A stretch of DNA of 45,502 bases, the filler included, from Sporopachydermia quercuum (Eukaryota): assembly GCA_001599295.1 (NCBI GenBank). It is 7 parts of 6 records of this genome, joined end to end, with 100 filler letters (N's around TTAATTAATTAA, not from the genome) between each part and the next. Parts side by side here need not be neighbours in the genome. Positions count along the whole stretch, not along the records: positions 2,644 to 18,269 come from BCGN01000006.1; 6 more parts are not named here. One strand, written 5' to 3'. Below the pieces are notes generated by a model that worked only from the letters and a program-made list of their open reading frames with translations, had not been told where the DNA came from and made no database searches. The translations under genes and the position numbers were made by a program. This document shows positions 7,147 through 43,967 of this stretch, one piece after another (positions within the stretch are counted from its first letter, which is position 1; each line of letters starts with the position of its first letter).

Positions 7147-8552
7147 TAATTTCGCTGGAGCGTTATCATAATTTTCTGAGTCTAGATTTCGTAATTATAA
7201 TTAACTAACAAAAGATGAAGCCTATGTAAAGCTCCGTAAGTTAACAAACTATTGAGTATCCAAGAAATATCGACAGAAAGCAGAGAAGTTTCGGTATTTC
7301 AGGAGCTTGTGTCACTACTGCTATAAAAGAATAGGAAAAATGATTCACCACCTTATATGTATACCACAACTTTATGTGAAGTCAAACCATTGATTAAATT
7401 GTAAAACTTTTTTTCACAAGATGGCGAATAACCCAGTTGTGAGACTAGCATTAGAAGATCCGTACAGTGAAATTTCGAGATGTGTCTACCTTGGAGATAC
7501 TAAAAAGTTAATGTATTTGCTACTTTGCCCATAACCAAATAGGTTGAGATGGTCCCAAATGTCCACGTGACTAAAAAGCAAACTTTTTGAGATTATAATC
7601 ACAAAAAACACCGTGCATATACACCTACTATTTCAACTTAAGGCATATTTCATAGATCAATAATTTTAAGATGGCATTATTATTGCAAACCTGTATTGTT
7701 ACCTTTCCTAATCTCTTGATTTCCATACATAATTCTTCAATAAAATAAAATAGCCATAAAGACTAATAGTCCTACAAAGAATTGACACTAAAATTTATCC
7801 TATAGGTTGAATTTACTTGTATTTTCTGGTTTAGAAATAGAAAAAGAGAGGAATTGACTAAGTTGACTAAGTCAGTACTTGTTCCTTAATCAATGAACAT
7901 TTGACCCTAAATAACAATCCTGATTAGTAGCGATGTCACCATTGGATTTGACTACGCCAACAAGGTGGTGCAGAGAACCTGGAGAAAAAAAAAGATTACG
8001 TGAGCAGTGATGCTAGAGTTAAAGTTTCAAAGGATTGCATTAGGATACAGGCAACCTAAGTAAGGGATGAAGCGATGAATCATATTCCCACTATCATTCT
8101 TGACTACTCATGAGAGATGATATTGAGTCGCGCGCAACAAGAAGAATCGGAAAGAGAGTGGCCAATATTGCTAAGAGCATTTGGAATGGAGTATGAAGAG
8201 ATAAGAATAGTTTGAAATGAGGGTCTCCTTGATTTCTAGTTAAATACCAGCTGGAAATATGTAGAAAAACAAAGAAAGCAGTAATGCCTTTATGAATAAA
8301 GTTATAATAAAAGCAGAATTAGGTTAGAATTAGGTTACAGGTTTCCTCCAGTGTAAAGATCTCAGTTAGAAAGGAAAAAAGATAAGAGAGTTATCAAGTT
8401 TCCGAGTCATACTATAAGAACATCTCCAGTTTTTATCTCCTATCTACGTTCATATTTCAAAATTCTCAACGACACAACTTCATTCACCGTCATTAGACAA
8501 AATTAGAATTCTATAAAACAAATTCAAAGTTGAAGCTGCTTATGATCGGAAA

Positions 8553-10560
8553 ATGTTTAGTGCCTGTGATCGTTGTTATAAAATAGTAAGTGAACCTCAA
8601 AAGATAGAATGTTATCCAGATGATTTATCATTAACCAAAACTTTAGAAGCATAAATGCTCGGGGGATCCATGTGAGAGATGCAACAGACTTGGATTACAA
8701 TGTACGCGAGCCAGAGAGGTGAAAAGAAGAGGAAGACCCAAAATATCGTCCCAAATAAATACACTCAGTTCGAGGGATTCATTAATTAACAATAAACAAA
8801 TTATTAGGAAACGAAGAGTTTCAGGACCACGAAATCGAAATGGATGTGTTGCTTGTAAGAAGAGGCATAGAAAATGTGACAGAACAGAGGATCTACTACC
8901 TTGCTCTTACTGTACGTCAAAAAAGATAGATTGCCAGGGTCTTAACTCATTATCGTCCTCTCTATCTGATGCTGACCACAATGAAACTATGATAGTTGTC
9001 AACAAAGATCAAAGTGAAAATTGTTTGGACGAAATACAAGAGCTGAGCTCTGGTTACAGTTTCGACAGTCCTTCTAATTACTCTACAAGTTTTGTTTTAT
9101 CTTCTCATATGGAGTCGTCAAAGTCTTTATCTGTGATACCCTTTGACGAACAAACTATTACTTCTCGTGCTGCCTCATGTAACTTGGCATCTGCTACTAA
9201 TAATTATACTGAGAATTCTNTTGGATTTCTACAGCCCCATTATTCCATTGATGATGTTTCAGCATCTGTATCCAACAAACTAAATTCTCGAGATAGATTT
9301 CTGTTGTATCATTTTATCAATCACGCTGCTCCAGCTACTGTTGCTATTCCTTCAGATTCTGATAACGTCTATTTATATACTATGATACCTATAGCGTATC
9401 AGGAACCAGCTTTATTATCCGCCATTTTAGCATTTTCAGCTGCACATTTGAAAACTCAATATAAGTATTACGAGTCAGATATTGAGAAATATAATTTAAA
9501 AGCTACAAGTGAGTTCAACACTTTGCTTCTAGTATCCCGGGCCTCACAAAATACTGGAAAATATCCTTCTTTCTCTAAGTCGTTGGCAATATTAGCGACT
9601 TCTCTGATGTTGAGCAATTTAGAGATTGCTCGTGATAGACCTGTTAATGGAAAGAACCACATGAGTACAGCAGCTCAGATAATAAAGCAAAATGGCGGAT
9701 TCTCTCGATTTAGGTTGATGTCAAGAATGGCACGACAACTAACAGATTTGTTTGGATATCATGATGTAATGCAAACCTTGGCTTCCGGGAAACCATGTGT
9801 GTTACAAGACGAATATTTATATCTTTCCAACGAAGTTACAGATGTAGACTTTCTTGATACTAGAATATGCGAANAGGAGGCGAAGAAACCACATTTACTA
9901 TTTGGTTTTGCGGAGAAACTTTATTATTATATAAGTCAAATACCGTTGGTGACTAATGAAGCCAATATTGATGAGCCCAAGAAAAGAGAAAGGACGAGAC
10001 AGATAGAATTGGCAATTCAAAGTTGGACCCTCCCGGATTATATAATGAACAACTCATATTTATTGGACTGCAATCAAAAGAAGTGCAAAATTTTGGATAA
10101 TTGGAGTGTGGATTTAACCTCTATAACTGAGGCTTCAATTGCCATACAGTGGGCAGGATTGTTAAGATTGTATCAAGCCACCAATGGCTTTAATATATCG
10201 CAGAATCCTAGAGTCTCTATGGCGGCTTCTTATATCCTAGAAGCTATTTCTAAAATTGAATTAGGATCGCCTTTAGAATCAATGATGCTTTTTCCTTTGA
10301 TTATGGCTGCTGTTGGGGGCGGGAATCGGAACGTAATAAAGGAAAGGTTTGATTCAATGAGTAAAACCATTGGATTTGACCATGTTCTTACCGCTCGAGC
10401 TTTTGTTCAGGAAGTTTGGGACAATTTGGATTTATTGAGGACGGGTAATAAGCATTGTTCTGCTGTGTCACTGCACGATTATGACGATGGCTCTGATGGA
10501 ATAGAGTTTGATTGGCAAACATTAATGCAACAGAAATATAGTCATTTAAGTATGGTTTAG
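8553..10560 (+). CDS. Transcription factor with two Zn2Cys6 clusters, an AT-hook and a fungal-specific (Fungal_trans_2-type) C-terminal domain; join(8553..8585,8647..10560)
   Basis: Exon 1 MFSACDRCYKI spliced in phase 0 to KHKCSGDPCERCNRLGLQC gives cluster 1. Then KRRGRPK, then CVACKKRHRKCDRTEDLLPCSYCTSKKIDC (cluster 2), then LLSAILAFSAAH, YHDV and FPL motifs. Confidence 0.88.
8586..8646 (+). other. Spliceosomal intron, 61 nt
   Basis: GTAAGT donor, CATTAAC branch-like motif at 8629-8635, TTTAG acceptor; removal reconstitutes a six-Cys zinc cluster. Confidence 0.88.
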
Positions 10561-10802: not shown

Positions 10803-12035
10803 TCAAAACTTGGCGCTAGCTAAGATTGAATCAATATCAGCTTTTATATTATAACCGCAAACTTCTTCGACCGTAAGTTTATTTGGAACATCGGAAGAGG
10901 AGCTCCAACCAATTCTTTCATCTAAGTTTTCTCTTGCTCTGAAACTGGCCTGTTGGATTTTAGTTGCTCGTGGTTTTCTGACTCTTTCATATAATTTCAA
11001 ACCTTCTTCGGGAGAAAAGCTGAATTTGGGAGAGAAGATGTAAGCCAATGCAGCGGCATCCTCAAAAGCTTGACATGCACCTTGAGATTGATCAGGAAGC
11101 ATTGGATGAGCGGCATCACCAAGTAGACCAACTTTTCCTTTAACCCAGTAAGGATATTCTTTATGAACATACAATCTCCATTGCTTGATATCGAAAGAGT
11201 GTTTGAAGATTTTCATGATTTCTTCATCCAGCTCAGGGAAAGTTTCGCATAACTGCTCAGGGGTAGCTTCATTACCCCAACCATCCTCACGGTAATTGTT
11301 ATAAGTAGCAGGGTAAAAGCAATAGCAACTGATAATGTCGCCGTTGCTACAAGGTGATAAAACAATCTTGTTGATACCTTTACCACCCCAAAATTCAATA
11401 GATTCATTAGCAGCAAAATCCTGAATACCCAATTTTTTGGCTTCATCGGATTTAATGAGACATCTGTAACAGCATGATGAACTCCTGTCGTAAGTAGGAA
11501 CAACTCCGATGGAAGATCTAACAACAGATCTGATACCATCTGCTGAAATAATAATGTCAGCCTTGAACGTTTCTCCGTTATCAAAGATAAGTGTACCATT
11601 TTCGGGAACAACATCCATAACTTTATGATCAACAACAAGTTTGCATGGTTCACCTTTTAAATGCTTACCAGTAGCTTCATCTAACAGAGCATTATGAGCA
11701 TCAATTCTATGAAAATTGAAGTACGGCATGCCAAATTTCTTTTCGTAATCCCCAATGGGATAAACTCCTTCGACTTCTCCTGTCTTCCAGTCGTGTCTTA
11801 TGAGGGTTTTAAGAATGACTGGTTTGAATTTTTTTAAGTCTACACCCCATTCCTTCAAAGGAATTCCACCATTCGGCGCACAGCTAAGAGATGCACCAAC
11901 CTCACCAGCAAAATGGTATCGTTCAAAGATGGTGATTTTATGGCCTTGAACTCTAAGAGCGATAGCAGCTGCTAAACCACCAAGGCCAGCTCCAATAACA
12001 GCCACGTTGTAAGGTTTGAACTCNTCACAAGTCAT
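10803..12035 (-). CDS. FAD-dependent aromatic monooxygenase (salicylate hydroxylase-like, group A)
   Basis: VAVIGAGLGGLAAA (GxGxxG), DIIISADGIRS (DG motif), LLGDAAHPMLPDQSQGACQAFEDAA (GD motif). Confidence 0.93.
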   Translation of the reverse strand: MTCXEFKPYNVAVIGAGLGGLAAAIALRVQGHKITIFERYHFAGEVGASLSCAPNGGIPLKEWGVDLKKFKPVILKTLIRHDWKTGEVEGVYPIGDYEKKFGMPYFNFHRIDAHNALLDEATGKHLKGEPCKLVVDHKVMDVVPENGTLIFDNGETFKADIIISADGIRSVVRSSIGVVPTYDRSSSCCYRCLIKSDEAKKLGIQDFAANESIEFWGGKGINKIVLSPCSNGDIISCYCFYPATYNNYREDGWGNEATPEQLCETFPELDEEIMKIFKHSFDIKQWRLYVHKEYPYWVKGKVGLLGDAAHPMLPDQSQGACQAFEDAAALAYIFSPKFSFSPEEGLKLYERVRKPRATKIQQASFRARENLDERIGWSSSSDVPNKLTVEEVCGYNIKADIDSILASAKF

Positions 12036-12292
12036 TTTTTCAAAAGATTGAACCGTTGTTGAATTGTAAACAATAGGTATTAATGCAACGATATATATTC
12101 TTGCTTAGAAAATCGCTTGTTATATTGAGACGGAGTGTTCAATTTGAACTAAAACTTCTGATTAGCGTCTAGTCGCTACCTTTAATACTGCAAGCTACGG
12201 AGAATTCGTAACACGACTTGAATTCGAAACAGAGAAAGACGAATATAATAAGAAAAACATGCAATAAAAATTCTAGAAAAGCAATCAAAACC

Positions 12293-12316
12293 CGGAGACG
12301 GAGACGGAGACGGAGA
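12293..12316 (+). promoter_or_regulatory. (CGGAGA)4 array, candidate Zn2Cys6 binding element in the divergent monooxygenase/MFS promoter
   Basis: Four CGG triplets at 6-bp spacing in AT-rich DNA; extra CGGAG copies near 12131, 12198 and 12911. Confidence 0.5.
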
Positions 12317-13657
12317 AATTTAGCAATATCTACATATATATAGATATATTATATCATAATAGAAAATTGTACCCACCTTCAGTAGAGGATGATAAGACAT
12401 TCAGTCATACACCGTTTAGAATACTGGTTTGAAACAAAAATAGCTCTTCGTATCAACCATAAGTACTAGTATAGTTAACAGCCATGTCATACATCCAATT
12501 TGGATAACNATATTTTATCAGTTCGAACGTTAAGACGGACAATTTTTCGAAGTTAATGAGTTTTTAGTCTGTTCCCTTTTTCTTTATAGCAAGATATAAA
12601 GTAGATAGTGGAGCCCATACCATGAAATTCGCTCAATTCTTATTTCCGAATCCTCAATTCCAGTATGATCTGCCAAGGATTTCCGCCACAAAAAATGATT
12701 TACGCAGGAGTTTCGTAAAGTTAAAAGCCACTATAGTTTTATTTATTTGTTTGTTCTGCTCATTGGTTGAATGCTGATTGTATGTTTTGGTTTGAGGAAC
12801 TGATGTTCCCAGTATGCATTATAAATCTTACTGTGAACATGACTGAGATAAGTACGATAAGAAATTACCAAATTAAGAATATCAGTTGTTAATCTGACCC
12901 CGAGATACGCCGGAGATTATTTAAGAGCATGAAGTTTCAGCATGAATTTTCCATTGGAAATCTGAAAATAATAGTTAACTGCCGTTATAACTTTATGAAA
13001 TAATGAGTTCATATCAGTTATATTTGAGCATACATCGCGCGTTCCTTTGTAGATAAGAACGCAAAAATTTTAGAGACACGTTTGATTGTATTATAAACCT
13101 ATATTGATCGAATTTTCCAATGCTGGAAAGACATAGTTGATAGTGAATCATTTCTCTGTTTTTGTCTCCTTTACGACGGGTAGTTTAGTTGCTTCCATGT
13201 TCTAGTTCTTTTACTCCTGTAATATATTCTCTTACTTTTTTTTCTTTCTTTCTTGATTATTGGTAATTGCTGGTACATTATATAGAGAGAAGGACATATT
13301 TCTGTTTGATTTGTTCCTTCGTATCTTTTAATCCTTCTTATCTTCACTTCGCTCCATTCTTATCTCCTTTTGTTGCGTTACTAATATCTCTTACAAGAGA
13401 GTTATTTCCTCAAGAACATATAAGTATATTGAGCACTAGAGAATTCTGCTTATATAACAAGTGGTTTGCCAATTAAAATAATAATAATCTCAGAATCATA
13501 ACTCATTCTTTCTCAGGAATTATTTCTCTGAATAGTAGTGATAATCATCAGGTCATTCATAAGAAGAATATTTGAATAGTCACTTGATTTAGTTCGGCTT
13601 CTTCTCTCTTGGGTGTTAACATAATCACAATCACATAGTAATCAGATCACTGTGAAC

Positions 13658-15166
13658 ATGGCTGAAGAAAAAGATCTCGCTGTTCAGGTAAACTCGCTTG
13701 AAGAGCACCTTGAGTCTGGGTCGAGCCTCATGGATATTTCTAAGGGAGAAATTGATTTTGATAGTCCTGAGATTCAGGCTATTGAAAAGAGAATCTGTAG
13801 AAAGCTGGACTTCAGATTACTTCCCATTTTTTCTTTGATGTACTTGGCAATGAGTATTGATAGATCGTCAGTTGGCAATGCAAAGATTGAAGGTCTAGGT
13901 ACAGACCTTGGACTTGAAGGGTATCAACTAAACTTCGCTTTGACAGCATTTTTTGTTGCCTATGGTTTGATCGAAGTTCCCTCTAACATGATCATTAAGA
14001 AATATAAGCCAAAATATGTATTATCAGCTGCTGTATTCCTATTTGGTCTTATTTCTATGTGCTCAGCCTTTGTTACAAATTTTGCAGGATTGCTTGTAAC
14101 AAGAATTTTCCTTGGATTCTTTGAAGGTCCTATGCAACCTGGAATTACTTTTGCCTTATCAATGTTTTATAGAAGAAAAGAACTTCAAGTCAGAGTCGGA
14201 TGGTTTATTGCCTCAGCTGCTCTTGCTGGTGCATTTGGTGGTCTTCTTGCAACTGGTTTAAGTCGCATCCCTCCTCATGGTGTTTTGAAAAGATGGTCAT
14301 ATATTTTCCTTTTGGAAGGTATAATGACCATGATTATTGCTGGTGCCGCATTCTATATCATTCCTGGTACTCCTGGTACTGCCTCATTCCTGACTGAAGA
14401 GGAGAGAAGAGTGGCTCATCTTCGAATTGAGGCCGAACTAAAGCATTCCCATATTAAAGATGAAAAAATCGATAAAGAACAATTGAAGCTTGGCTTTTGT
14501 TCTATCATTTCCTGGGGTTGTGGCCTTGTATTCTTACTTACCGGTCTTGTTGTTCAGTCCCTCTCTCTATTTATGCCTTCTTTATTAACTGGTATGGGAT
14601 ACTCCGGTACTAAAGCACAACTGATGACCGTCCCTCCATTTGCTGCTGGTTCAGTTTTTGTGGTAGCCTCATCTTATGCTGCTGATTATTTGAATGTGAG
14701 AGGACCTTTCAATGCCTTCTTTTTCCTTCTTTGTGTTATTGGTTATTCTATGTTATACACTCAAGATGTGGTAGGGATTAAGTATTTTGGACTCTTTTTC
14801 GTTTGTCTTGGTGGTTTCTCACTTGGACCTGGCACATTGACTTGGGCAGCGAATAATGCCGCTTCTCATACAACTAGAGCTGTGGCAACTGCAATAACTG
14901 CAATTATTGGTACTGTTGGTTCTATAATTGCCATGTGGATTTATCTTCCCAAATACGCTCCTGATTACAAACAAGGTAATAAGATTCTGCTTGGAACATC
15001 TACTGGTGGTATTGCGGTATGCCTATGTTTGTCTTTTTATCTCCATTGGGACAATCAGCAAAGAGCTGCAGGAAAGAGAGATTATCTTCTTGAAAAATAC
15101 GAAAATGATGATGATGCTCAAAAGCATTTGGCTCATCGTTATCCCAAATTTAAATATATCATATAG
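13658..15166 (+). CDS. MFS transporter, anion:cation symporter (Tna1/Dal5/Seo1) family
   Basis: RKLDFRLLP, DRSSVGNAKIEGL, EVPSN, RIFLGFFEG, GAFGGLLA, WSYIFLLEG, FLTEEER, AQLMTVPP. First ATG is 13658. Confidence 0.95.
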   Translation: MAEEKDLAVQVNSLEEHLESGSSLMDISKGEIDFDSPEIQAIEKRICRKLDFRLLPIFSLMYLAMSIDRSSVGNAKIEGLGTDLGLEGYQLNFALTAFFVAYGLIEVPSNMIIKKYKPKYVLSAAVFLFGLISMCSAFVTNFAGLLVTRIFLGFFEGPMQPGITFALSMFYRRKELQVRVGWFIASAALAGAFGGLLATGLSRIPPHGVLKRWSYIFLLEGIMTMIIAGAAFYIIPGTPGTASFLTEEERRVAHLRIEAELKHSHIKDEKIDKEQLKLGFCSIISWGCGLVFLLTGLVVQSLSLFMPSLLTGMGYSGTKAQLMTVPPFAAGSVFVVASSYAADYLNVRGPFNAFFFLLCVIGYSMLYTQDVVGIKYFGLFFVCLGGFSLGPGTLTWAANNAASHTTRAVATAITAIIGTVGSIIAMWIYLPKYAPDYKQGNKILLGTSTGGIAVCLCLSFYLHWDNQQRAAGKRDYLLEKYENDDDAQKHLAHRYPKFKYII

Positions 15167-18269: not shown

Positions 18270-18369
18270 NNNNNNNNNNNNNNNNNNNNNNNNNNNNNNN
18301 NNNNNNNNNNNNNTTAATTAATTAANNNNNNNNNNNNNNNNNNNNNNNNNNNNNNNNNNNNNNNNNNNN

Positions 18370-18874: not shown

Positions 18875-19837
18875 CTAAGCAAAAATAGGAATCTTTCCAG
18901 GCCAGCTATATGGATCATTAAATCGGTAATTTAAGTTGAGTGAGGAGATCTTGTCAATGTTTTCTTGAGTTAGATCGAAGTTATTGCACTGCAGATTTTG
19001 CTTTAGTCTGTCTTCATTGTTTGACTTAGGAATAACAGCGACTTTTCTTTGAGTGGCCCATCTCAATAAAACTTGCGCAGGTGTTCTTTGAACTTCTTCG
19101 GCTATACTCTTAATCAAGTCATGACTCAATAAAGATTCAAGTTTCGATGCACCACCGTGATTTAATTCAATAAATGATTGAGGTCCGAATGTTGAATAAC
19201 CAGTAACACAAATGCCATTGTTTTGGCAGAATTCAATCAATTCAAGTTGGGTAAGATAAGGATGATGTTCAATTTGAAGAACAGCTGGTTTGACCTTGGC
19301 AAATCTGAGTAAATCAACTATCAAGGCACCGTTGAAGTTGGAAACACCAATATTCTTAGCTAAACCGTTTTTATGGATTTCCTCCATTGCAGCCCAAGTT
19401 TCAGCAATGGGGACATCTTCAAAAACCATCTTTCCACTTTTATCACCACTATAGAAGGTTGGTGGGTAACATTCTTCAAAAGGGACAAATTTTTGCGCAA
19501 TTGGGAAATGAATAAGATATAAATCCAAGTATTCTAATTTCCAATCGTTTAATGACCTTTGGAAAGCGGGGAGGACGTTTTCCTTTGCATGATAGTTGTT
19601 CCAGAGTTTACTGGTAATGAATAAATCTTCTCTCTTAACCAAACCATCTTTGATGGCCCTGTTCACACCTTCACCGCATTCTTTTTCATTACCATAATCA
19701 GCAGCACCATCAATTAATCTATAACCTGCCTTGATTGCATTGTAAATGGTGTCTGCGCAAGTTTCCTTGGTTACTTTCCAAACACCAAAACCAACTAATG
19801 GCATTTGAGCTCCTGTGTTGAGAGTTAATGTAGCCAT
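18875..19837 (-). CDS. XYL1: NAD(P)H-dependent D-xylose/aldose reductase (aldo-keto reductase, XYL1/GRE3 type)
   Basis: [58 protein letters not shown]…IPIF. Confidence 0.93.
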
Positions 19838-20995
19838 TGTTATCTTATGTTAGTTATCTTGAGTGTAATATGAAAGCAGAACAATCAAAGTAAAAGACGC
19901 AAGAAAACTATATTCACAGAAATTTCAACAGCTATAGATTAATGAAAGAAGACAGCGATTCAGAAATCCTTTATATATAACATAATACCTGTGTGGAAAG
20001 TTTGGAAATCCTTCATGCATTTACTCTAACAAATGAGAAACAATGGAATATGCTGCGAAAGTTTGAAACTAAGTTAAAAGAGCTTAAGTAGCGAAGTAAG
20101 CTATTTAGAATTCTCTTGGGTACACATCTGGGATCCGGATCATAAATTTTAGATAATACTTATTATATGTTAAAAGATTGAAATGTACTAACTATCCTTA
20201 ATGTGTAGATATTATCTAGTTTATTTCCAATCAGTAAATTGAATCTCTTCAATCTACGTTCAAGTAGAACTTNTTTATCACCAGATATAAAAGAGACAAT
20301 TATCAAACCCTGACANNANGAANNATATTATAAATGACATACTTTCTAGTAGAACATTTATATTATTATTCTTAAAGCAATAGCAAGAATTATACTATGA
20401 TCTTATAACCAAACAATAAATAAAAACAATAGGCATTAATTGATTCTCGGTTTTACCTTAATCAGAAGCTATATCTTAATCTGTACACTAATGTTTCATA
20501 AAATTTGTACGTAAAAGTATTAGAAACTGTTAGGGTATGAACTTTAGAGTTTAGTAACGCTTAAAAAAACAAGCAGTGGATAAACTATAGTACTAGCTAA
20601 TTTTTTATCTAATCGAACCCGCAAAAAAATAAAGTTTAGGATCCACCTTCCTTTGAACCACTATTAGATGAAAGGAACTGAGAAGGTCGCCTTTTCATAC
20701 TCAGGAGCAAGTAGGAAAATTGGGGAGTGGGTGGACAATAGTTCACATGAATTAGTAAATAAGCTATTTTAGTATACGTGCATTCATCATTAATAGGTTT
20801 CCGTTTTGTCGTAAAGGTATACGAATCTTAAAGCCTAAAAGCCATAAAGAATTTTGACATAAAAATCATGTTTTGAGATCTACTAAACGCTTTCAGGCAA
20901 TTTCTAATATAGAAAAATTTCGTACGTTGTAATGCTACATAATTCAGTCACAAAAAAAAAATTAATAAACATTAGGGATAAAAAATTTTTTGAAT

Positions 20996-21090: not shown

Positions 21091-21219
21091 NNNNNNNNNN
21101 NNNNNNNNNNNNNNNNNNNNNNNNNNNNNNNNNNNNNNNNNNNNNNNNNNNNNNNNNNNNNNNNNNNNNNNNNNNNNNNNNNNNNNNNNNTGAGACGTTA
21201 ATTGACTCGTTGATTCACT

Positions 21220-25370: not shown

Positions 25371-27410
25371 CTATGCCAATGATATCCTATAATTAACATC
25401 TGCAATATAAAGATTCCAATCATTGATCTCACTACAACCACCAAAGAAATCCTGTTTATTTTGTTGTTCGTTAGCTGCTGCCAAATCTCTCTTTGTCCAT
25501 ATTGAAACAATAATGCTTCTAACACTACTTAAATTACCAAGAGTATGTAGTTCTAGATGATGAAGTAAATCAAGACATAACGTCCTCAAATCTTCACAGT
25601 CATCAGAGAATGAAGATATTTCTGAAGCACATATAAATATTGGCCATAAAAAGAATGAACCCCATAGTCGTCTTCGATCAATAACAACAAAGTTAATGTA
25701 AGAGAGAATCTTTTTAACTAGAGTTTCAATCTCCTTATCTTCTGGAGCTTTATCGCATATTGCACAGTAATAGAATACTAGAGTTGCTAGTCTTTTTACT
25801 TCAAATGAGATCAAAAAGCATAACTGATCAGCATTAATATTGGAACCATCAAATACTGTGGAACATTCAGATCCAAATAATGTATTGACAGGAGATGCTG
25901 AAAATAAACTAGTGGAAACAGTCGCTGGTATAAAAGCATCAAAAGAGGTTTCAATTGCTGGTGATGTTAATTCCAATAGTTGTTCCTCTGGATGTAAAAT
26001 GAATGGATCATAAGGAGATGCCATGAAAGAAGTTTCGGTATAACACTGTTCTATTATACTGAAACTTGTTAAATCAGACACAGGTGTCAGTACAGCTTTA
26101 TCTATCTCAGAACTTATAGCAGTGTTCCCTCTATCAATAATATTGTCAATATCGACTTCCACTTCAAATTTCTTTAGCATAGATTCTAATGTTGAACACA
26201 TTTGCGTGTACATCTCGGGACGCTTTTCCCATCTACCAGACTTTTCAAACGACAAGTCAGTGATATCAGAAATTATATCAACTAAAGAAGTTGAGCAACC
26301 CATCCATGGAACTAGCATGGTATTTTGTTTGAATCCTAGGTTATCAGCAATATCAACTAATACGCTNACATCTTGACATGCTGTTCTACCCATCGATTCT
26401 TGATAAACTAGGAACTCGACAATGAATTTGAAAATAGGATTACTGTTGTATAAATCAAATGCTGCTGATCCTGATTGATTCAAGTATCCATTCTTTAGTA
26501 ATTCACACGTAAATTTTAAACTCTTCGTCCAGTTCAAATCACAGTTGTTTCCAATCTCAAAGATTATTATAAGAGTTAGACATAATAATATATCTAACGT
26601 TAATTCGCCACCAGCTTTCAATTTTTCAGTAACATAGTTTTCCGAGTACCTTTTAAACCGAAGAGACCAAGCTTTCCATTTGGATACTTGCTCCATATCA
26701 TTATTCAATTCGTGTACTCTAGCCTGATATAACGATCCTAGTGCAAGCATTAGATAGTAAATATGAGAACAAGAATAACTGTATTGGAAGATATCGTTGA
26801 AGTGAATAGATCGATCAACAGAAATATCACCTAGATCTGAAGCAGGTGTAATGAAATTGGTCAAATATTTCACTGAGCAATCCGAAGAATTCCGAATCAC
26901 TTGCTCAAAATCACTATCAGATATTTTCAATCCCAAAGTTACAGCATCGCGCGAATTTAAAACATCCATGGGGATGAAACTATACCTTGGAGATTTAATA
27001 GTCAATCTTGCATCTATTTCATTATTGATCAAGATGAAATGAAGTTGAGTACTGTTCATGGGAACAAAATGAGCTTTTCGTAATTTTTGTTCCAAAGAGA
27101 GTGAATCGTGATTGTCGTCCTCATTTTCTTCAAAATCAGAATCACTTTTCGATTTCTTTCTGTTATTTTTCTTTTCTTTTTGCGGTTTTTTCCATATTCC
27201 TTCTCGACCGAATGCTGACCCTTTGTTTTCTAGGTCTTCTCTAAATTGTAGTATTAATCTGTATGCACATTTCACTCCTTTCTGCTGACAACGTGTACAT
27301 CTCGGCTTCTGCTCATCACATTTTATTCTTGCCTTCTTACAAGCATCGCAACCGTTTCTTGATCGAGTTGTCTTCTTCACGGGATTTGTAGTCATAGTTG
27401 AGGGTGTCAT
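25371..27410 (-). CDS. Zn2Cys6 transcription factor with fungal-specific C-terminal domain
   Basis: TRSRNGCDACKKARIKCDEQKPRCTRCQQKGVKC; PWMGCS and LWPIFICASE motifs; 679 aa. Confidence 0.93.
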   Translation of the reverse strand: MTPSTMTTNPVKKTTRSRNGCDACKKARIKCDEQKPRCTRCQQKGVKCAYRLILQFREDLENKGSAFGREGIWKKPQKEKKNNRKKSKSDSDFEENEDDNHDSLSLEQKLRKAHFVPMNSTQLHFILINNEIDARLTIKSPRYSFIPMDVLNSRDAVTLGLKISDSDFEQVIRNSSDCSVKYLTNFITPASDLGDISVDRSIHFNDIFQYSYSCSHIYYLMLALGSLYQARVHELNNDMEQVSKWKAWSLRFKRYSENYVTEKLKAGGELTLDILLCLTLIIIFEIGNNCDLNWTKSLKFTCELLKNGYLNQSGSAAFDLYNSNPIFKFIVEFLVYQESMGRTACQDXSVLVDIADNLGFKQNTMLVPWMGCSTSLVDIISDITDLSFEKSGRWEKRPEMYTQMCSTLESMLKKFEVEVDIDNIIDRGNTAISSEIDKAVLTPVSDLTSFSIIEQCYTETSFMASPYDPFILHPEEQLLELTSPAIETSFDAFIPATVSTSLFSASPVNTLFGSECSTVFDGSNINADQLCFLISFEVKRLATLVFYYCAICDKAPEDKEIETLVKKILSYINFVVIDRRRLWGSFFLWPIFICASEISSFSDDCEDLRTLCLDLLHHLELHTLGNLSSVRSIIVSIWTKRDLAAANEQQNKQDFFGGCSEINDWNLYIADVNYRISLA

Positions 27411-29475
27411 AATTTGCTATCAATCTGATTCTTGATGCTGTTGAAGACGTTCAGTACAGCCTCGTTCAATAATAAAATCTGTTCGGAACAAAACTATTTG
27501 CGACTTTTCATATTCTTCAAATTTTGATCTTTTGGTTAGAACTGGTAAAGTACCCCAGATATACTGGATCAAGAACAACAAAAACCAACAGGTCGGTGCA
27601 ATCTGATAGGAGCTGAAAAAGCAATGAATTGTTGGAAACAGAATCAAGAGTACTATATTGGCCAAAAAAAAAAACCAGAAAAATCATTCAATAGGAGAGA
27701 GTATAGCCAGACAAGTATCAAACTTAATTACATTATTCTCAATAACACTCCTTTTCCTTATAACCAATAGCTTGCGAAGCTGAGCTTTTGATAGGCAAGA
27801 GAAAGCATTTGTTGGAAATGAGCGAATGTTACTCCTATGGTACTTCAATACATTTAAAGTTCAGAAGTCTAAAACTTAAATGAAACATATACATGATAAT
27901 GCCGGGTAGAAAAGAATGATCCAACAATAAAGGAGAAAGAAACAGAAGAGCAAACCAAATTGAATTGGGAGTTTCTATAGCTTGTGAGAAGCAATATTTG
28001 CTGAATATAAAACAACTCTTTGTTAAGGGAACAAAACTGATGATTCATTGGTTCTATCAAAATTGCATCTACATACAAAACATGAAACTATTACCGCTGG
28101 TTTTTACTAGAGTTAGGACGAATTGGTAACGCTCCNAAAGGACCCGGGCCAATACTTCAACTGAAGTAAACTTTTGCTTACTTATACTACTTACACTGCG
28201 ACAGAATTAGCCTTTATTTATGTAATTTACCTCTTACTGTGAGTCACTTCTAATGATACTTATACTTAGACTTTCCTGTCCATCCTATCCGTTTCACTTT
28301 GACTTACAATCCACTTATCGTATCTTCTCCGGAATAATTAATTAAAGTTCGGTACTGTACCGAAGCCTATCCAAATAAGGTCTCTATAAAGATTAATAAG
28401 TAGCTAATAATTCTAGATTCTTTCAAGCTAACTCCACCTTATGCTTCCGATAAGGTTGAATCAGATCTAAATCTGGAAAAATTCGAGTGGTAAATGAAGC
28501 GAACCCTTATCATTATTCATTAAAAAGGAAAGAAATGGAGATGGCAATGGAGATGGAAATGAGTATTTGGTTTGAAGAAGGTACACGAAATTGGCATTTT
28601 TCTACATACTGTCGAAGGAGATCTATTTTGGTGCAGACAATTCATCAAAGGCGGAATGGGCTATATAAGAGGATCAATATAAATAGATTGATTGCGCCAT
28701 TTGGCAAACTAAGCAATTCGTTCAGGTGTTAGGAATTCTTATCGGTGGATATGTCATTTCTCGAATTATACCTTAGAATANAAGCTTATATTAATTGAAA
28801 TCAATCATTTATTGAGGGATCGAAAATTGAGCAAAATTAATAATGTGCAAGAAAAATGTAGTCCTAATAATAAGTACTACTGCATTATCCATTAGCAATA
28901 TAATGCTCTTGACAATTATCAATAAATCGAAAGATCTTTACCAGAGAATCATTGTTGAACATGGTTCTCAGGGCCGTTTGCCAAACCTATCTCTAAAGAT
29001 TAATTGTCTAATCACTTCAAAGAGAAATTGCTCAGCCTTGCCCAAAGTTAGTCAAACTTAAAGATAAGAGAGAGATCAGGCATTATTCAAATGTTATTCA
29101 AATATTATTGGTAAATGTGTGCCGTGTTTTGATAGCCAGACTCATTACCGGTATTTATTATATTTTTGAATCGTTTCTCTTGAGAAATTAAAACGCTAGA
29201 AATAAGATTGTTATGTCTGATGAGCATCAATGTTAATGCTCAAAACGAACTTACCGTCCTCTCCCATCTTCCTATTCGATGAGATAGGATAGATAGTTAT
29301 TATACAGTGCTTAGACTCATTATTGCAATTATGCACTAAGATCTACTAAACCATTTCAGACAGTTTCTAATATAGAAAAATTTCGTACGTTGTAATGTTA
29401 CATAATTCTGTCATAAACAAAAGAAAAACAAAAACTATACACAAAATGAGACGTTAATTGACTCGTTGATTCACT

Positions 29476-29541: not shown

Positions 29542-29641
29542 NNNNNNNNNNNNNNNNNNNNNNNNNNNNNNNNNNNNNNNNNNNNTTAATTAATTAANNN
29601 NNNNNNNNNNNNNNNNNNNNNNNNNNNNNNNNNNNNNNNNN

Positions 29642-30390
29642 TACTGAACTAACAGTATCAAATAGACCCATGAAGAATATATTGGTATAAGGATATGAAA
29701 ACATATCCTGGAACTAGAAAGGGAGATGTGTTAGTAGTCTGATAAAATACACTACGGTGAGTCTGTCCATCAAAGGCAGAATATCGTGTCAGTCATTTTT
29801 ATTCTTCTTCTTAGTTCGATACCTAACTTAACTAATCTTTATCAGAAACATGCCTTATTTTGGACGATGCGTATTCCATTGATGACTTTTTCTTTTCCTT
29901 GTTTTCGTTTCCATGAAGCATACAAATTCCATGCTGTGGCAATCAATTCAGTTAGTCCATTACGTAGAATCCCACACACTTCAATGAGTCCTGCTAACAC
30001 TCTAGCTGTATATGATCCTCTACTAAATCCAAAAATATATATTTTATCACCAGGGTTATAATTTGATACCAAATAACTATAAGCTTTCAATACGTGAACC
30101 TTGAAAGAAGTAGCAAATGCTTCGTCTGCGAGTCGACTTGGCCATTGCAAGCCAGTTTGATGTTGAAATTTCAAGTCATTGCCAATTCCTGGCTGATAAT
30201 AGCAAATTTGTTGGTCAGCATTTTCTTTAAAAAGTTGTTCAAATATGATGAGAATATTTGTTGGTTTGGTGGTATCATAATTATTTGCTGTACCATCTAG
30301 ACAAAGGACAATTGATTTCCCAGGGTACTTGTTATCAGTTGGTGTTTCAGGAGTAGGATCAGCAGAGGCTTCTTTGGTTTTGTCTGACAT
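29642..30390 (-). CDS. DUF2235 / Tle1-like alpha/beta hydrolase (YEL023C-like), 3'-partial; complement(join(29642..29713,29854..30390))
   Basis: IVLCLDGT, PTNI, YYQPGIG, YNPGDKIYIFGFSRGSYTARVLAG; exon 2 FQDMFSYPYTNIFFMGLFDTVSSV supplies the GLFDTV motif. Confidence 0.9.
29714..29853 (-). other. GC-AG spliceosomal intron, 140 nt
   Basis: AAG|GCATGT donor, perfect TACTAAC branch at 29736-29730, pyrimidine tract and CTAG acceptor; phase 0 and restores the frame. Confidence 0.85.
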
Positions 30391-32031
30391 TATGAAGAAA
30401 GTGTTGAAAGCTGAGAACCTATATAAGAGTATCCTTCGGGCTTAAAAATGTCAGAGTAGAGAAGATGGTAAGCTAAATGATGGTCTTTTATATACGATGC
30501 AACTTGATGTCCTGTTTCCTCCCGTTTGACTTTACAAGTAAGTTGAACTAATGAAAACGAAAACCATCTAAGCAAGCGAAGGCAGAATTCCCTTGTAATA
30601 TATACCTATTGTTAGACAAGGTAAACAGCAATATAGGCCATTTACTATTGCACATCACAATGTAGCATAGCATTCGCAACACAATTTTAGTACATTTTTG
30701 AGTTTATATTTGATATTTAACTTAGTTTAAAGGTTTAGCTGTTATGATGCCTATATTCAAGATATGCTTTATATTATATTGTTTTAGTATTGTTGATACT
30801 CCTTTAAGTTCTAATTTCTTAGGGGAATTCTTAAGTATTAATGGAGTTACCAAAGAAGTTTAAGATCTTGCCAAGAGAAGGTTGGAAGACGCAAACATGG
30901 GCAGTCTGCCACTTATCTGATTGGATCGTTGATTATCGAGTTACGTGAGGTCAATCGTATTTAAATACGATTAAGAATAGGTGCCCGAAGTATGGATAGT
31001 TATAAAACTGAGGATGGGATCCAGAAAAAGGGAATTATCTAGTANTTAGAATCAATTGCCCTGCTTAAGGAAGTTTGATCAGATACTTATTCCTATATAA
31101 ACACTTTAATGTTATAGTTCAAAGCTTCTACCATATATACAATTAATAGTGTCACTCCAATCTGAAGTATAATATGAAAGAATTAGCTGTCACTAAAAGT
31201 TTAGTGTTACTCCATAATGCTTTTTCAGTAGAAGTTGATTTGCCAGAAAGACCAGTTGTAGGCCGATAATTGAACAAGTAAAGTTTGGAGGTAGACAAAT
31301 ATTAGAAGTGGTTTAGTAGTGTGAAATAGTGGCTAATAAGGAGTTTAGTAAACGATTGATGTTAGTTTCATTCTTGTCTGCAAGGAGTTATTTGGGCTAC
31401 TGAGCTACAGAGCTAATGAAAGAGTTGCTCATTGAGTTTAATTGTCTTAGATATAAGATTAATATTGTGAGATATAAAACAAGAGATGTGATGCAACCCT
31501 AATTATTTGTACTCCCACTTCAATGTCATTGACTTCTATCAGGCATTGATTGCATAAGCTCTGCAGATATCTATTCAGTCACAATTATACAATATTCAAC
31601 TGTAGAGGACAGAAATTGACTCAAAGTATTTCAAAATTTTTATGGATATAATACAAATATTTGAAGAGAGCATACTCTCAACTTTTTCTACTATTACAAA
31701 GTGAGAGAACCATTATAAACGCTATAATTAAAGTTGAACGTTAATTTGCTGTGGAGTTGGAGTTTATTCTTGGTTACTTGATAAAACGTCAAATCCTTTT
31801 CACTCACTACTGAAAAGTCTAACCATGAGCATGAACTTTAACTTCCACGTCTCATCAAGTCTCATCTGGTGGAGAACGTTAGTCAAGCCTTCAGTGTTTT
31901 GATTAACAAATAGCCGATTGATTCATCTCTGTCTTTCCTTGAAAACACAGTAGTAGCTTCAATAATCAAGAAATATACGGATGGCCCAAATCAGAACTGC
32001 TTTAGAAATTGTGAATAGTTCTTTTTGATTG

Positions 32032-32238: not shown

Positions 32239-32339
32239 ANNNNNNNNNNNNNNNNNNNNNNNNNNNNNNNNNNNNNNNNNNNNTTAATTAATTAANNNNN
32301 NNNNNNNNNNNNNNNNNNNNNNNNNNNNNNNNNNNNNNN

Positions 32340-41349: not shown

Positions 41350-41449
41350 NNNNNNNNNNNNNNNNNNNNNNNNNNNNNNNNNNNNNNNNNNNNTTAATTA
41401 ATTAANNNNNNNNNNNNNNNNNNNNNNNNNNNNNNNNNNNNNNNNNNNN

Positions 41450-43867: not shown

Positions 43868-43967
43868 NNNNNNNNNNNNNNNNNNNNNNNNNNNNNNNNN
43901 NNNNNNNNNNNTTAATTAATTAANNNNNNNNNNNNNNNNNNNNNNNNNNNNNNNNNNNNNNNNNNNN

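Follow-up and report, generated by a model that had tools for sequence, protein, structure and literature searches.

Comparison with homologous proteins supports a predicted two-exon gene model at positions 8553-10560 (+) of the window, the whole 45,502-nt stretch of Sporopachydermia quercuum DNA that was analyzed. The two exons would encode a 648-aa transcription factor consisting of a Zn2Cys6 cluster (cluster 1), a disordered basic linker, a second Zn2Cys6 cluster (cluster 2), and a Fungal_trans_2 domain, a reading to which we assign a probability of about 0.75. The architecture is not new; the gene is a divergent, intron-split addition to a widespread two-cluster subfamily. Because this arrangement is already catalogued in many uncharacterized fungal relatives, the result is a gene-model correction and not a new kind of protein.

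The predicted gene opens with an ATG at 8553-8555 (+) in the context AAAATG. Exon 1 (8553..8585, +; 33 nt, 11 codons) carries cysteines 1 and 2 of cluster 1 in the motif CDRCYKI and is followed by a predicted spliceosomal intron of 61 nt in phase 0 (8586..8646, +; GTAAGT…CATTAAC…TAG), which interrupts cluster 1 after its second cysteine. GT…AG ends, a 5' consensus (GTAAGT, 8586-8591, +), a branch-like CATTAAC near the 3' end (8629-8635, +, 11 nt before the end of the intron, which closes with TAG), and a restored frame were all present. Exon 2 (8647..10560, +; 637 codons plus stop) encodes the rest of the protein, from cysteines 3 to 6 of cluster 1 through the linker and cluster 2 to a disordered region and then the Fungal_trans_2 domain, and the predicted join of 8585 to 8647 is in phase, giving 1947 nt for 648 aa plus stop. 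The exon-2 frame is closed directly upstream by the intron's own TAG and contains no ATG before residue 115, past both clusters; without splicing, no ATG precedes them. A bacterial-style ORF list begins this frame at GTG 8719, and the GTG start that the initial annotation ascribed to the ORF track was thereby borne out. All sequence elements of the hidden 33-nt exon and of the intron at 8586-8646 that it proposed are likewise at the stated positions, and homology backs the predicted splice.

Alignment to relatives showed here that collinear homology spans the predicted splice junction. The exon-2 part of cluster 1 (Cys 3-6; 8647..8703, +) begins at position 10 of the 39 positions of the Pfam Zn_clus profile and covers positions 10-37, scoring 18 bits by itself, under the cut-off of 21 bits. 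In BLASTP, residue 1 of exon 2 aligned collinearly to residue 34 of the relative P0030; the seven P0030 residues just before residue 34 are CDRCYKL, closely resembling the CDRCYKI of exon 1. We compared 37 open ATG/GT/AG splice models around the site, using a home-made cluster-1 profile of 31 positions that was derived from 24 relatives and did not include the window. The model of the initial annotation ranked at the top of the 37 (44.5 bits, profile positions 2-30 of 31), and exon 2 alone scored 23.3 bits (positions 10-30). There is also an out-of-frame upstream ATG (8542..8544, +), 11 nt before the proposed start and with C at -3, which would open a 15-codon frame overlapping the main ATG at 8553; models starting at this ATG with nearby GT donors reached 21.5-28.4 bits or less, versus 44.5, and were rejected.

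After the predicted splice, cluster 1 (aa 5-30) has all six cysteines in the arrangement C-x2-C-x6-C-x4-C-x2-C-x6-C. Cluster 2 (8845..8934, +; aa 78-107) reads C-x2-C-x6-C-x8-C-x2-C-x6-C, scored 28.6-29.2 bits against Pfam Zn_clus (PF00172; cut-off, 21), and fits the pattern C-x2-C-x6-C-x5-16-C-x2-C-x6-8-C, its x8 loop being in range. The presence of two tandem Zn2Cys6 clusters, as first proposed, agrees with the Pfam profile, the P0030 alignment, and the splice-model scores, and both loop spacings are as described. The x4 middle loop of cluster 1 lies below the x5-16 of published screens, among them the pattern given in the available text of the CeGAL survey (10.1101/2022.06.15.496365), and would evade the usual C6 search pattern. 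Its description as unusual is not supported as it stood: the loops of the two-cluster relatives are usually x5 and x6, in contrast to x4 and x8 in the window, but x4 is shared by one relative, P0030 only, which nevertheless yields two Pfam Zn_clus stretches.

Searches for relatives returned 332 matches at E<=1e-3, 150 of which were listed, and two clusters were found in 24 of those 150. All 10 two-cluster relatives tested with Pfam contained two Zn_clus stretches together with Fungal_trans_2. The initial annotation had treated two clusters per chain as exceptional; this does not hold, since the arrangement is normal in a widespread Fungal_trans_2 subfamily and is already in print: the accessible part of a 2019 catalogue of C6 genes gives "two C6 zinc domains" for the PF11951 (DUF3468/Fungal_trans_2) proteins CCG_02279 of Tolypocladium guangdongense and CCM_00582 of Cordyceps militaris (PMC6471507). 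Further members are Scheffersomyces stipitis A3LSF1 and Clavispora lusitaniae CLUG_05613. Like the window protein, these proteins have the order cluster 1, linker, cluster 2, PF11951 and a lysine four residues after the second cysteine of cluster 1 (Cys2+4), the yeast members share its G-R-P linker motif, and the alignment is collinear over the full length. The window cluster 1 has I at Cys2+3 and K at Cys2+4, in agreement with the signature of the two-cluster subfamily, a hydrophobic residue at +3 and Lys at +4 ahead of a cluster 2 of the basic type. The window protein differs from the subfamily in an identity of only 22-28% and in its intron-split cluster 1; relatives with DNA or contiguous ORFs are unsplit, and the intron was found in none of the three with available DNA (L001, P0161, and P0156, all contiguous).

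A tree computed from the sequence downstream of the last cluster (63 rows; rows of <430 aa, P0008, and P0080-P0151 omitted) placed the window's orthologue trio as sister to, and not inside, the main two-cluster clade, which has an SH-aLRT support of 96 and contains all 20 two-cluster rows. The branch joining the trio to this clade has a support of 82 under a midpoint root, which is arbitrary; the other half of the tree holds 22 single-cluster and 2 clusterless rows. Because the subfamily carries both clusters, the tandem clusters appear to be inherited and not peculiar to this gene, and the window protein belongs with a widespread, functionally uncharacterized ascomycete two-cluster subfamily. 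The source names of its members were generic or automatic in 26 of 26 cases (20 clusters of relatives looked up). Literature retrieved on tandem or double Zn2Cys6 consisted mostly of papers on two separate factors, and the phrases queried were absent from the accessible part of an in-silico survey of Candida albicans (PMC2447501).

In the protein predictions for the two closest relatives, cluster 1 is missing. The closest one with a name, P0002 (Priceomyces carsonii XP_062811039.1, 438 aa), has neither a cluster nor any other DNA-binding domain in its annotation, and P0171 (528 aa) begins MKKRGPKRK and has cluster 2 only; cluster 1 may have been lost in the lineage of these two. Annotation does overlook cluster 1 among the relatives, in line with the initial annotation: the entries P0160 and P0154 are truncated versions of two-cluster proteins and start at internal Met residues downstream of cluster 1. 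A metagenome scan with a yeast alignment (A3) found one locus, L001, which is from a yeast and encodes both clusters and the linker motif KTVGRPK in a single uninterrupted frame. The orthologue trio of the window (A2), used for a scan of the same kind, gave 64 pattern matches, none of which was confirmed by tblastn, and a 28-row alignment (A1) contained no stretch conserved enough for scanning. Word-index searches with the exon-2 protein returned no match at E<=0.001, and those with P0030 residues 22-114 returned only P0030 itself.

An alternative that accepts the splice holds that cluster 1 does not read DNA and is a structural, regulatory, or protein-contact module, with cluster 2 alone recognizing DNA and any dimerization occurring via the C-terminal domain; we consider this possible, if on the whole rather unlikely. 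It is in keeping with the missing basic run between the second and third cysteines of cluster 1: K/R among these six residues average 1.46 in cluster 1 versus 5.25 in cluster 2 (3 versus 5 in the window protein), and strong DNA binding by cluster 1 is in question because of these low numbers. Single-cluster relatives from the same searches keep the cluster-2 type only, the linker varies in length, and the C-terminal domain is weakly similar to domains that are known as dimers, all of which would fit a cluster 1 without a DNA-reading role. Against this, the Cys2+4 lysine is invariant in cluster 1 of 24/24 relatives and the window protein, at the position of the base-contacting Lys18 of Gal4. 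A basic G-R-P segment is conserved after cluster 1, and in 4 of 10 relatives scanned with Pfam (P0037, P0031, P0034, and P0011) cluster 1 is the best Zn_clus stretch, both of which also speak for a role at DNA.

In the DNA-reading mechanism that we tentatively propose, at somewhat less than even odds, cluster 2, which is strongly basic, would be the main reader of a CGG-type site, and cluster 1, which keeps only the invariant Cys2+4 lysine, would provide the chain with an additional but weaker means of reading DNA. The basic G-R-P segment that follows cluster 1 might run inside or alongside the minor groove, as the Arg/Gly tail does in Pho7, and the single-chain arrangement would replace the coiled-coil dimerization of the Gal4 type. 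The C-terminal domain would serve as a ligand- or signal-responsive regulatory domain, and a speculative target would be two adjacent genes, one of them aromatic-acid hydroxylase-like and the other for an MFS transporter. That the window protein is a pseudo-dimer reading two half-sites, as initially suggested, is something that we continue to infer; the lack of a predicted coiled coil after either cluster speaks for it, and the much lower basicity of cluster 1 and the variable linker length speak against it. We hold with considerable doubt the broader idea that the whole two-cluster PF11951 subfamily is a natural single-chain alternative to coiled-coil dimerization, with a G-R-P arm in the minor groove; the two nonequivalent clusters would then sit on two CGG-type half-sites, possibly direct repeats. 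If so, the DNA-binding logic of the subfamily would be undescribed, given the generic or automatic names of its members. How two unequal clusters per chain read DNA is a question for the family and not for this locus.

The linker between the clusters contains the AT-hook-like basic motif KRRGRPK (8722..8742, +; aa 37-43), which aligns with the G-R-P motif of the subfamily. G-R-P follows cluster 1 in 11 of the 24 two-cluster relatives, and its G and R are invariant in 8/8 yeast members. The reading of this stretch as an AT-hook can be kept in part. An RGRP core flanked by K/R is present, as in the HMGA-type AT-hook (PF02178), but the window has a single copy, and the complete core occurs only in the window among the relatives compared; those with G-R-P carry M, I, N, or V where the window core begins with Arg. 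The Pfam AT_hook profile gave no match to the exon-2 protein at E<=10, a threshold at which HMMER filters may drop weak matches, and literature queries pairing the AT-hook with Zn2Cys6 found nothing. The KRRGRPK region has a pLDDT of <50 in the structure model. A minor-groove role for this stretch is plausible by analogy, the precedent being Pho7, whose Arg/Gly-rich segments flanking the zinc module are described, in the accessible text, as penetrating the minor groove during monomeric DNA binding (PMC6265462). Because the linker ranges from 23 to 99 aa across relatives, it would provide no fixed ruler for the spacing of half-sites.

The Fungal_trans_2 domain (PF11951; 9298..10548, +; exon-2 residues 218-634) was matched at a Pfam E value of 2.1e-42 with 145.8 bits (cut-off, 21), over profile positions 1-381 of 384, and is modeled mostly at >90 pLDDT. 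About 100 residues predicted to be disordered separate it from cluster 2. Fold comparison of the C-terminal domain found weak similarity to Cep3 and to the ligand-binding domain of Upc2 (best E, 0.018-0.028) and no match at E<=0.001. The Upc2 and Cep3 domains form dimers. The modeled cluster 2 of the window has two short helices at a pLDDT of 81-85, and the AlphaFold model of P0030 has two short helices per cluster at 74-93. A coiled coil was not predicted after either cluster in the AlphaFold models of the window protein and P0030; exon-2 residues 105-201 and P0030 residues 116-175 are modeled at a pLDDT of <50 without a helix of >7 residues, so that in both models 60 to 100 residues after cluster 2 would be without a helix.

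Homodimers of the Gal4/Ppr1/Put3/Hap1/Leu3 type share the six-cysteine cluster fold with the window protein, and in P0030 the sequence of cluster 2 is similar to those of Lac9 and Ppr1 chains, but these factors have one cluster per chain and a coiled coil that pairs two chains, whereas the window protein has two clusters per chain and no helix predicted after either. Zn2Cys6 factors are expected to recognize CGG-type triplets, according to the part of the Pho7 study available (PMC6265462). Pho7 of Schizosaccharomyces pombe (PDB 6o19, 6e33) and AlcR have no coiled coil and bind DNA in monomeric form; unlike the window protein, Pho7 contains only one cluster and recognizes one CGG, and its sequence similarity to P0030 is marginal (E, 0.28-0.37). 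Two PF00172 domains per polypeptide are also reported, in the accessible text of the respective sources, for Bhr1 of Dichomitus squalens and PoZCP55 of Pleurotus ostreatus (PMC13532241, PMC7295025). As described there, these are basidiomycete proteins that differ from the window protein in having their clusters near the C terminus, septin-like NTPase domains, and no PF11951.

A further alternative questions the intron itself: the ATG-CxxC piece would be a relic or coincidence, and the locus would be a pseudogene or encode a clusterless protein starting at exon-2 residue 115. The splice-signal pattern by itself is not rare; it has one match in the whole window, that of the predicted intron, with 0.34 expected by chance, and of 100 shuffled versions of the window, 22 contained at least one match. 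The yeast branch-site consensus is TACTAAC, from which CATTAAC differs by two mismatches, and the annotation of the closest named relative without a cluster would also suit a clusterless protein. The placement of the pattern, however, is specific, as the ranking of the 37 splice models showed. With exon 1 joined in phase, cluster 1 becomes complete and agrees residue for residue with the relatives, and the frame at 8647-8991, open over 114 codons without an ATG to start them, codes for cysteines 3 to 6 of cluster 1, the linker, and a cluster 2 that is significant in Pfam. Moreover, the CeGAL survey, in its available text, ascribes >90% of some 17,000 "domain-only" ("MHD-only") proteins to annotation errors and describes zinc clusters missing from gene models via missed short 5' exons or wrong starts (10.1101/2022.06.15.496365). 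We regard the absence of a functional intron as improbable and retain the spliced two-cluster model. Short yeast introns are usually removed constitutively. This and the lack of the intron in every relative with available DNA make it most improbable that regulated splicing of the 61-nt intron acts as a switch, in which removal would give the two-cluster factor and retention would stop translation after 33 codons, leaving at most a clusterless protein from an internal start, even though the intron sits within the DNA-binding domain, the exon-1 frame read through it reaches a stop at 8652-8654, and there is a precedent in Xlr2, for which the accessible text describes a microexon whose inclusion decides the presence of a GAL4-like domain (PMC11121469).

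For annotation, the 33-nt exon decides what kind of protein is recorded at this locus. An ATG-only model without it would hide both clusters and yield a regulator without a DNA-binding domain, and a GTG-type start would hide one cluster of the two. The cases described in the available texts of the CeGAL and Xlr2 studies differ from the window gene in concerning PF04082-type middle-homology-domain proteins or a regulated microexon. Missed-exon errors distort catalogues of fungal transcription factors, as the part of the CeGAL survey available indicates (10.1101/2022.06.15.496365).

The window contains a second zinc-cluster gene, at 25371-27416 (-), at which a hidden first cluster was sought and none was found; this gene starts at an ordinary ATG and encodes a single cluster. 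The genes of the speculative target pair lie at 10803-12104 (-) and 13625-15166, and a (CGGAGA)x4 element is present at 12293-12316. The first of the two is the hydroxylase-like gene; its best matches, at 3.2e-45 and 8.5e-44, are a decarboxylative vanillate 1-hydroxylase and a 4-hydroxybenzoate enzyme, respectively. In Candida parapsilosis, zinc-cluster regulators lie inside hydroxyaromatic catabolic gene clusters, according to the accessible text of PMC8929692. Another neighbor is xylose-reductase-like, with an identity of <=66% among the matches listed, the best of which are spread across several yeast families.

Sequence reading confirmed the initial annotation of this region on the plus strand: the first exon starts at ATG 8553 and runs for 11 codons (8553-8585), the predicted intron spans 61 nt (8586-8646; 5' GTAAGT, CATTAAC 11 nt before the 3' end, 3' TAG), and exon 2 is open from 8647 to the stop codon at 10558-10560, with a phase-0 join that gives 648 codons. 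The spliced protein carries the two six-cysteine clusters that had been described, cluster 1 at residues 5-30 (C-x2-C-x6-C-x4-C-x2-C-x6-C) and cluster 2 at residues 78-107 (C-x2-C-x6-C-x8-C-x2-C-x6-C). The remark that the gene had been started at a GTG traces to a bacterial-style ORF list, in which the frame begins at GTG 8719. Upstream, the TAG that ends the intron closes the exon-2 frame, whose earliest ATG encodes exon-2 residue 115, beyond both clusters; an unspliced, ATG-started model would therefore have no DNA-binding domain.

The gene model with the spliced 11-codon exon is very likely right, and the case for the exon rests on comparison with other proteins. In Pfam, the exon-2 protein matched Fungal_trans_2 (PF11951; E 2.1e-42) and Zn_clus (PF00172); its first 27 residues aligned to Zn_clus positions 10-37 of 39 only (18 bits versus a 21-bit cut-off), and the start of exon 2 reads as a Zn_clus domain that lacks its N-terminal part. 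Exon 1 encodes this part as CDRCYKI, the counterpart of CDRCYKL in a related protein, P0030, and the BLASTP alignment of exon 2 with P0030 opens exactly one residue past CDRCYKL. Every open ATG/GT/AG model in the vicinity, 37 in total, was scored against a cluster-1 profile built from 24 relatives (window excluded); the initially annotated splice model ranked first at 44.5 bits (profile positions 2-30 of 31), versus 23.3 bits for exon 2 alone. The splice signals by themselves are weak evidence for an intron: their pattern matched once in the window, with 0.34 matches expected and at least one in 22 of 100 shuffles. The branch-like CATTAAC is two positions off the branch-site consensus, TACTAAC. 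An out-of-frame ATG, with C at -3, lies at 8542. The window encodes a second Zn_clus and Fungal_trans_2 regulator (25371-27416, minus strand), which has an ordinary ATG and one basic-type cluster; a check for a hidden cluster upstream of it found none.

The two-cluster architecture is not new: it is an inherited one and had been catalogued before. Two PF11951 proteins, CCG_02279 and CCM_00582, are listed with "two C6 zinc domains" in a 2019 C6-gene catalogue, with x5 and then x6 in their cluster patterns (PMC6471507). As described, Bhr1 (PMC13532241) and PoZCP55 (PMC7295025) also have two PF00172 domains per chain, but their architecture differs; two such domains are mentioned for an Alternaria factor too. 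The window gene adds a member to a known two-cluster kind and is modest in interest. An exhaustive HMMER search gave 332 matches at E<=1e-3; among the 150 listed, the search pattern found two clusters in 24, one in 68 and none in 58, and Pfam recovered two Zn_clus stretches plus Fungal_trans_2 in all 10 two-cluster matches tested. Two-cluster members occur in Scheffersomyces stipitis (A3LSF1), Clavispora lusitaniae (CLUG_05613), Candida zeylanoides, C. jaroonii, C. anglica, Ogataea haglerorum, Penicillium, Aspergillus ochraceoroseus, Geopyxis, Rhizina, and Dactylella. Single-cluster relatives carry the cluster-2 type only. All 26 source names looked at were generic or automatic.

In a quick, arbitrarily rooted maximum-likelihood tree of the sequence after the last cluster (63 rows; rows <430 aa, P0008, and P0080-P0151 left out), the window protein formed a trio (support 100) with its closest match, P0002 (Priceomyces carsonii XP_062811039.1, 438 aa, only 40% identity), and another close relative, P0171. 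The trio was sister, through a branch with support of 82, to a clade (support 96) that took in every one of the 20 two-cluster rows; 22 single-cluster and 2 clusterless rows lay in the tree's other half. P0002 and P0171 are predicted with no cluster and one cluster, respectively. Probably, 5' coding sequence was missed in these two as well, although genuine cluster loss is possible. Overlooked zinc-cluster exons and misplaced starts are documented as common annotation errors, reported for >90% of ~17,000 "domain-only" entries (CeGAL preprint, 10.1101/2022.06.15.496365), and P0160 and P0154 are shortened annotations of two-cluster proteins, opening at an internal Met past cluster 1. In L001, a yeast locus from a metagenome, a single intronless frame codes for both clusters and KTVGRPK.

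The AT-hook proposed between the clusters held only in part. Its RGRP core is present in KRRGRPK (residues 37-43 of the spliced protein), in a linker predicted to be disordered, and Pfam AT_hook gave no match in the exon-2 protein. G-R-P stands at the aligned position in 11 of 24 relatives, usually in the form K-x-M-G-R-P-R, and the G and R are invariant in all 8 yeast members; where the window has R before the G, relatives have M, I, N, or V instead, in no case R. Given this conservation and the missing AT_hook match, KRRGRPK is best taken as a motif conserved in the subfamily, whose RGRP reading in the window is incidental. A minor-groove role for it would have a precedent in Pho7, described as a monomer on DNA that inserts Arg/Gly-rich segments beside its zinc module into the minor groove (PMC6265462).

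The suggested pseudo-dimer, in which a single chain with two clusters would read two sites, is a hypothesis about the two-cluster subfamily as a whole rather than the window gene alone. In its favor, predicted structures have no helix after cluster 2 in P0030 (residues 116-175, pLDDT <50) or the window protein (exon-2 residues 105-201), each P0030 cluster is modelled with two short helices, as is typical of the fold (pLDDT 74-93), and the cluster-1 Lys at Cys2+4 is present in 24/24 relatives. Against it, basic residues between Cys2 and Cys3 average 1.46 in cluster 1 versus 5.25 in cluster 2 (3 versus 5 in the window protein), and the linker varies from 23 to 99 aa across relatives. Fold matches of the C-terminal domain were weak (Upc2 ligand-binding domains and Cep3, best E 0.018-0.028), with none at E<=0.001.

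Adjoining the regulator is an FAD monooxygenase gene (10803-12104, minus strand); among solved structures, the best matches to its product are decarboxylative vanillate 1-hydroxylase and a 4-hydroxybenzoate enzyme, and the gene shares its intergenic region with a divergent MFS transporter gene (13625-15166, plus strand). The two genes have the look of a small unit for aromatic-acid catabolism. In the shared region, CGGAGA occurs in four tandem copies (12293-12316), with CGG triplets 6 bp apart, ~260-280 nt upstream of the hydroxylase-like gene's ATG; these copies are a candidate zinc-cluster binding site, or merely a microsatellite. In Candida parapsilosis, zinc-cluster regulators are reported within hydroxyaromatic catabolic clusters (PMC8929692); that the window regulator targets the hydroxylase/MFS pair is speculative.

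The spliced coding sequence has four CTG codons (144, 230, 331, and 620), none within the clusters; codons 230 and 331 align with leucines conserved in P0171 and the P. carsonii protein, which hints that the source yeast may read CTG as Leu. A xylose-reductase-like aldo-keto reductase (18875-19849, minus strand) is only 66% identical to its best match in the searched collection, and its best matches are scattered across several yeast families; no sequenced yeast in that collection is therefore closely related to the source yeast. Two runs of 44 N with 12 bases between them occur at 2544-2643, 18270-18369, 29542-29641, 32240-32339, 41350-41449, and 43868-43967, the places of filler between joined parts, and a single run of 100 N at 21091-21190; several N-run places coincide with ORF ends, and so regular a pattern points to masking or scaffolding rather than random sequencing gaps. 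An ORF of this yeast genome at 29842-30441 (minus strand) strongly matches the T6SS_Tle1-like catalytic domain family (PF09994; E 4e-47).
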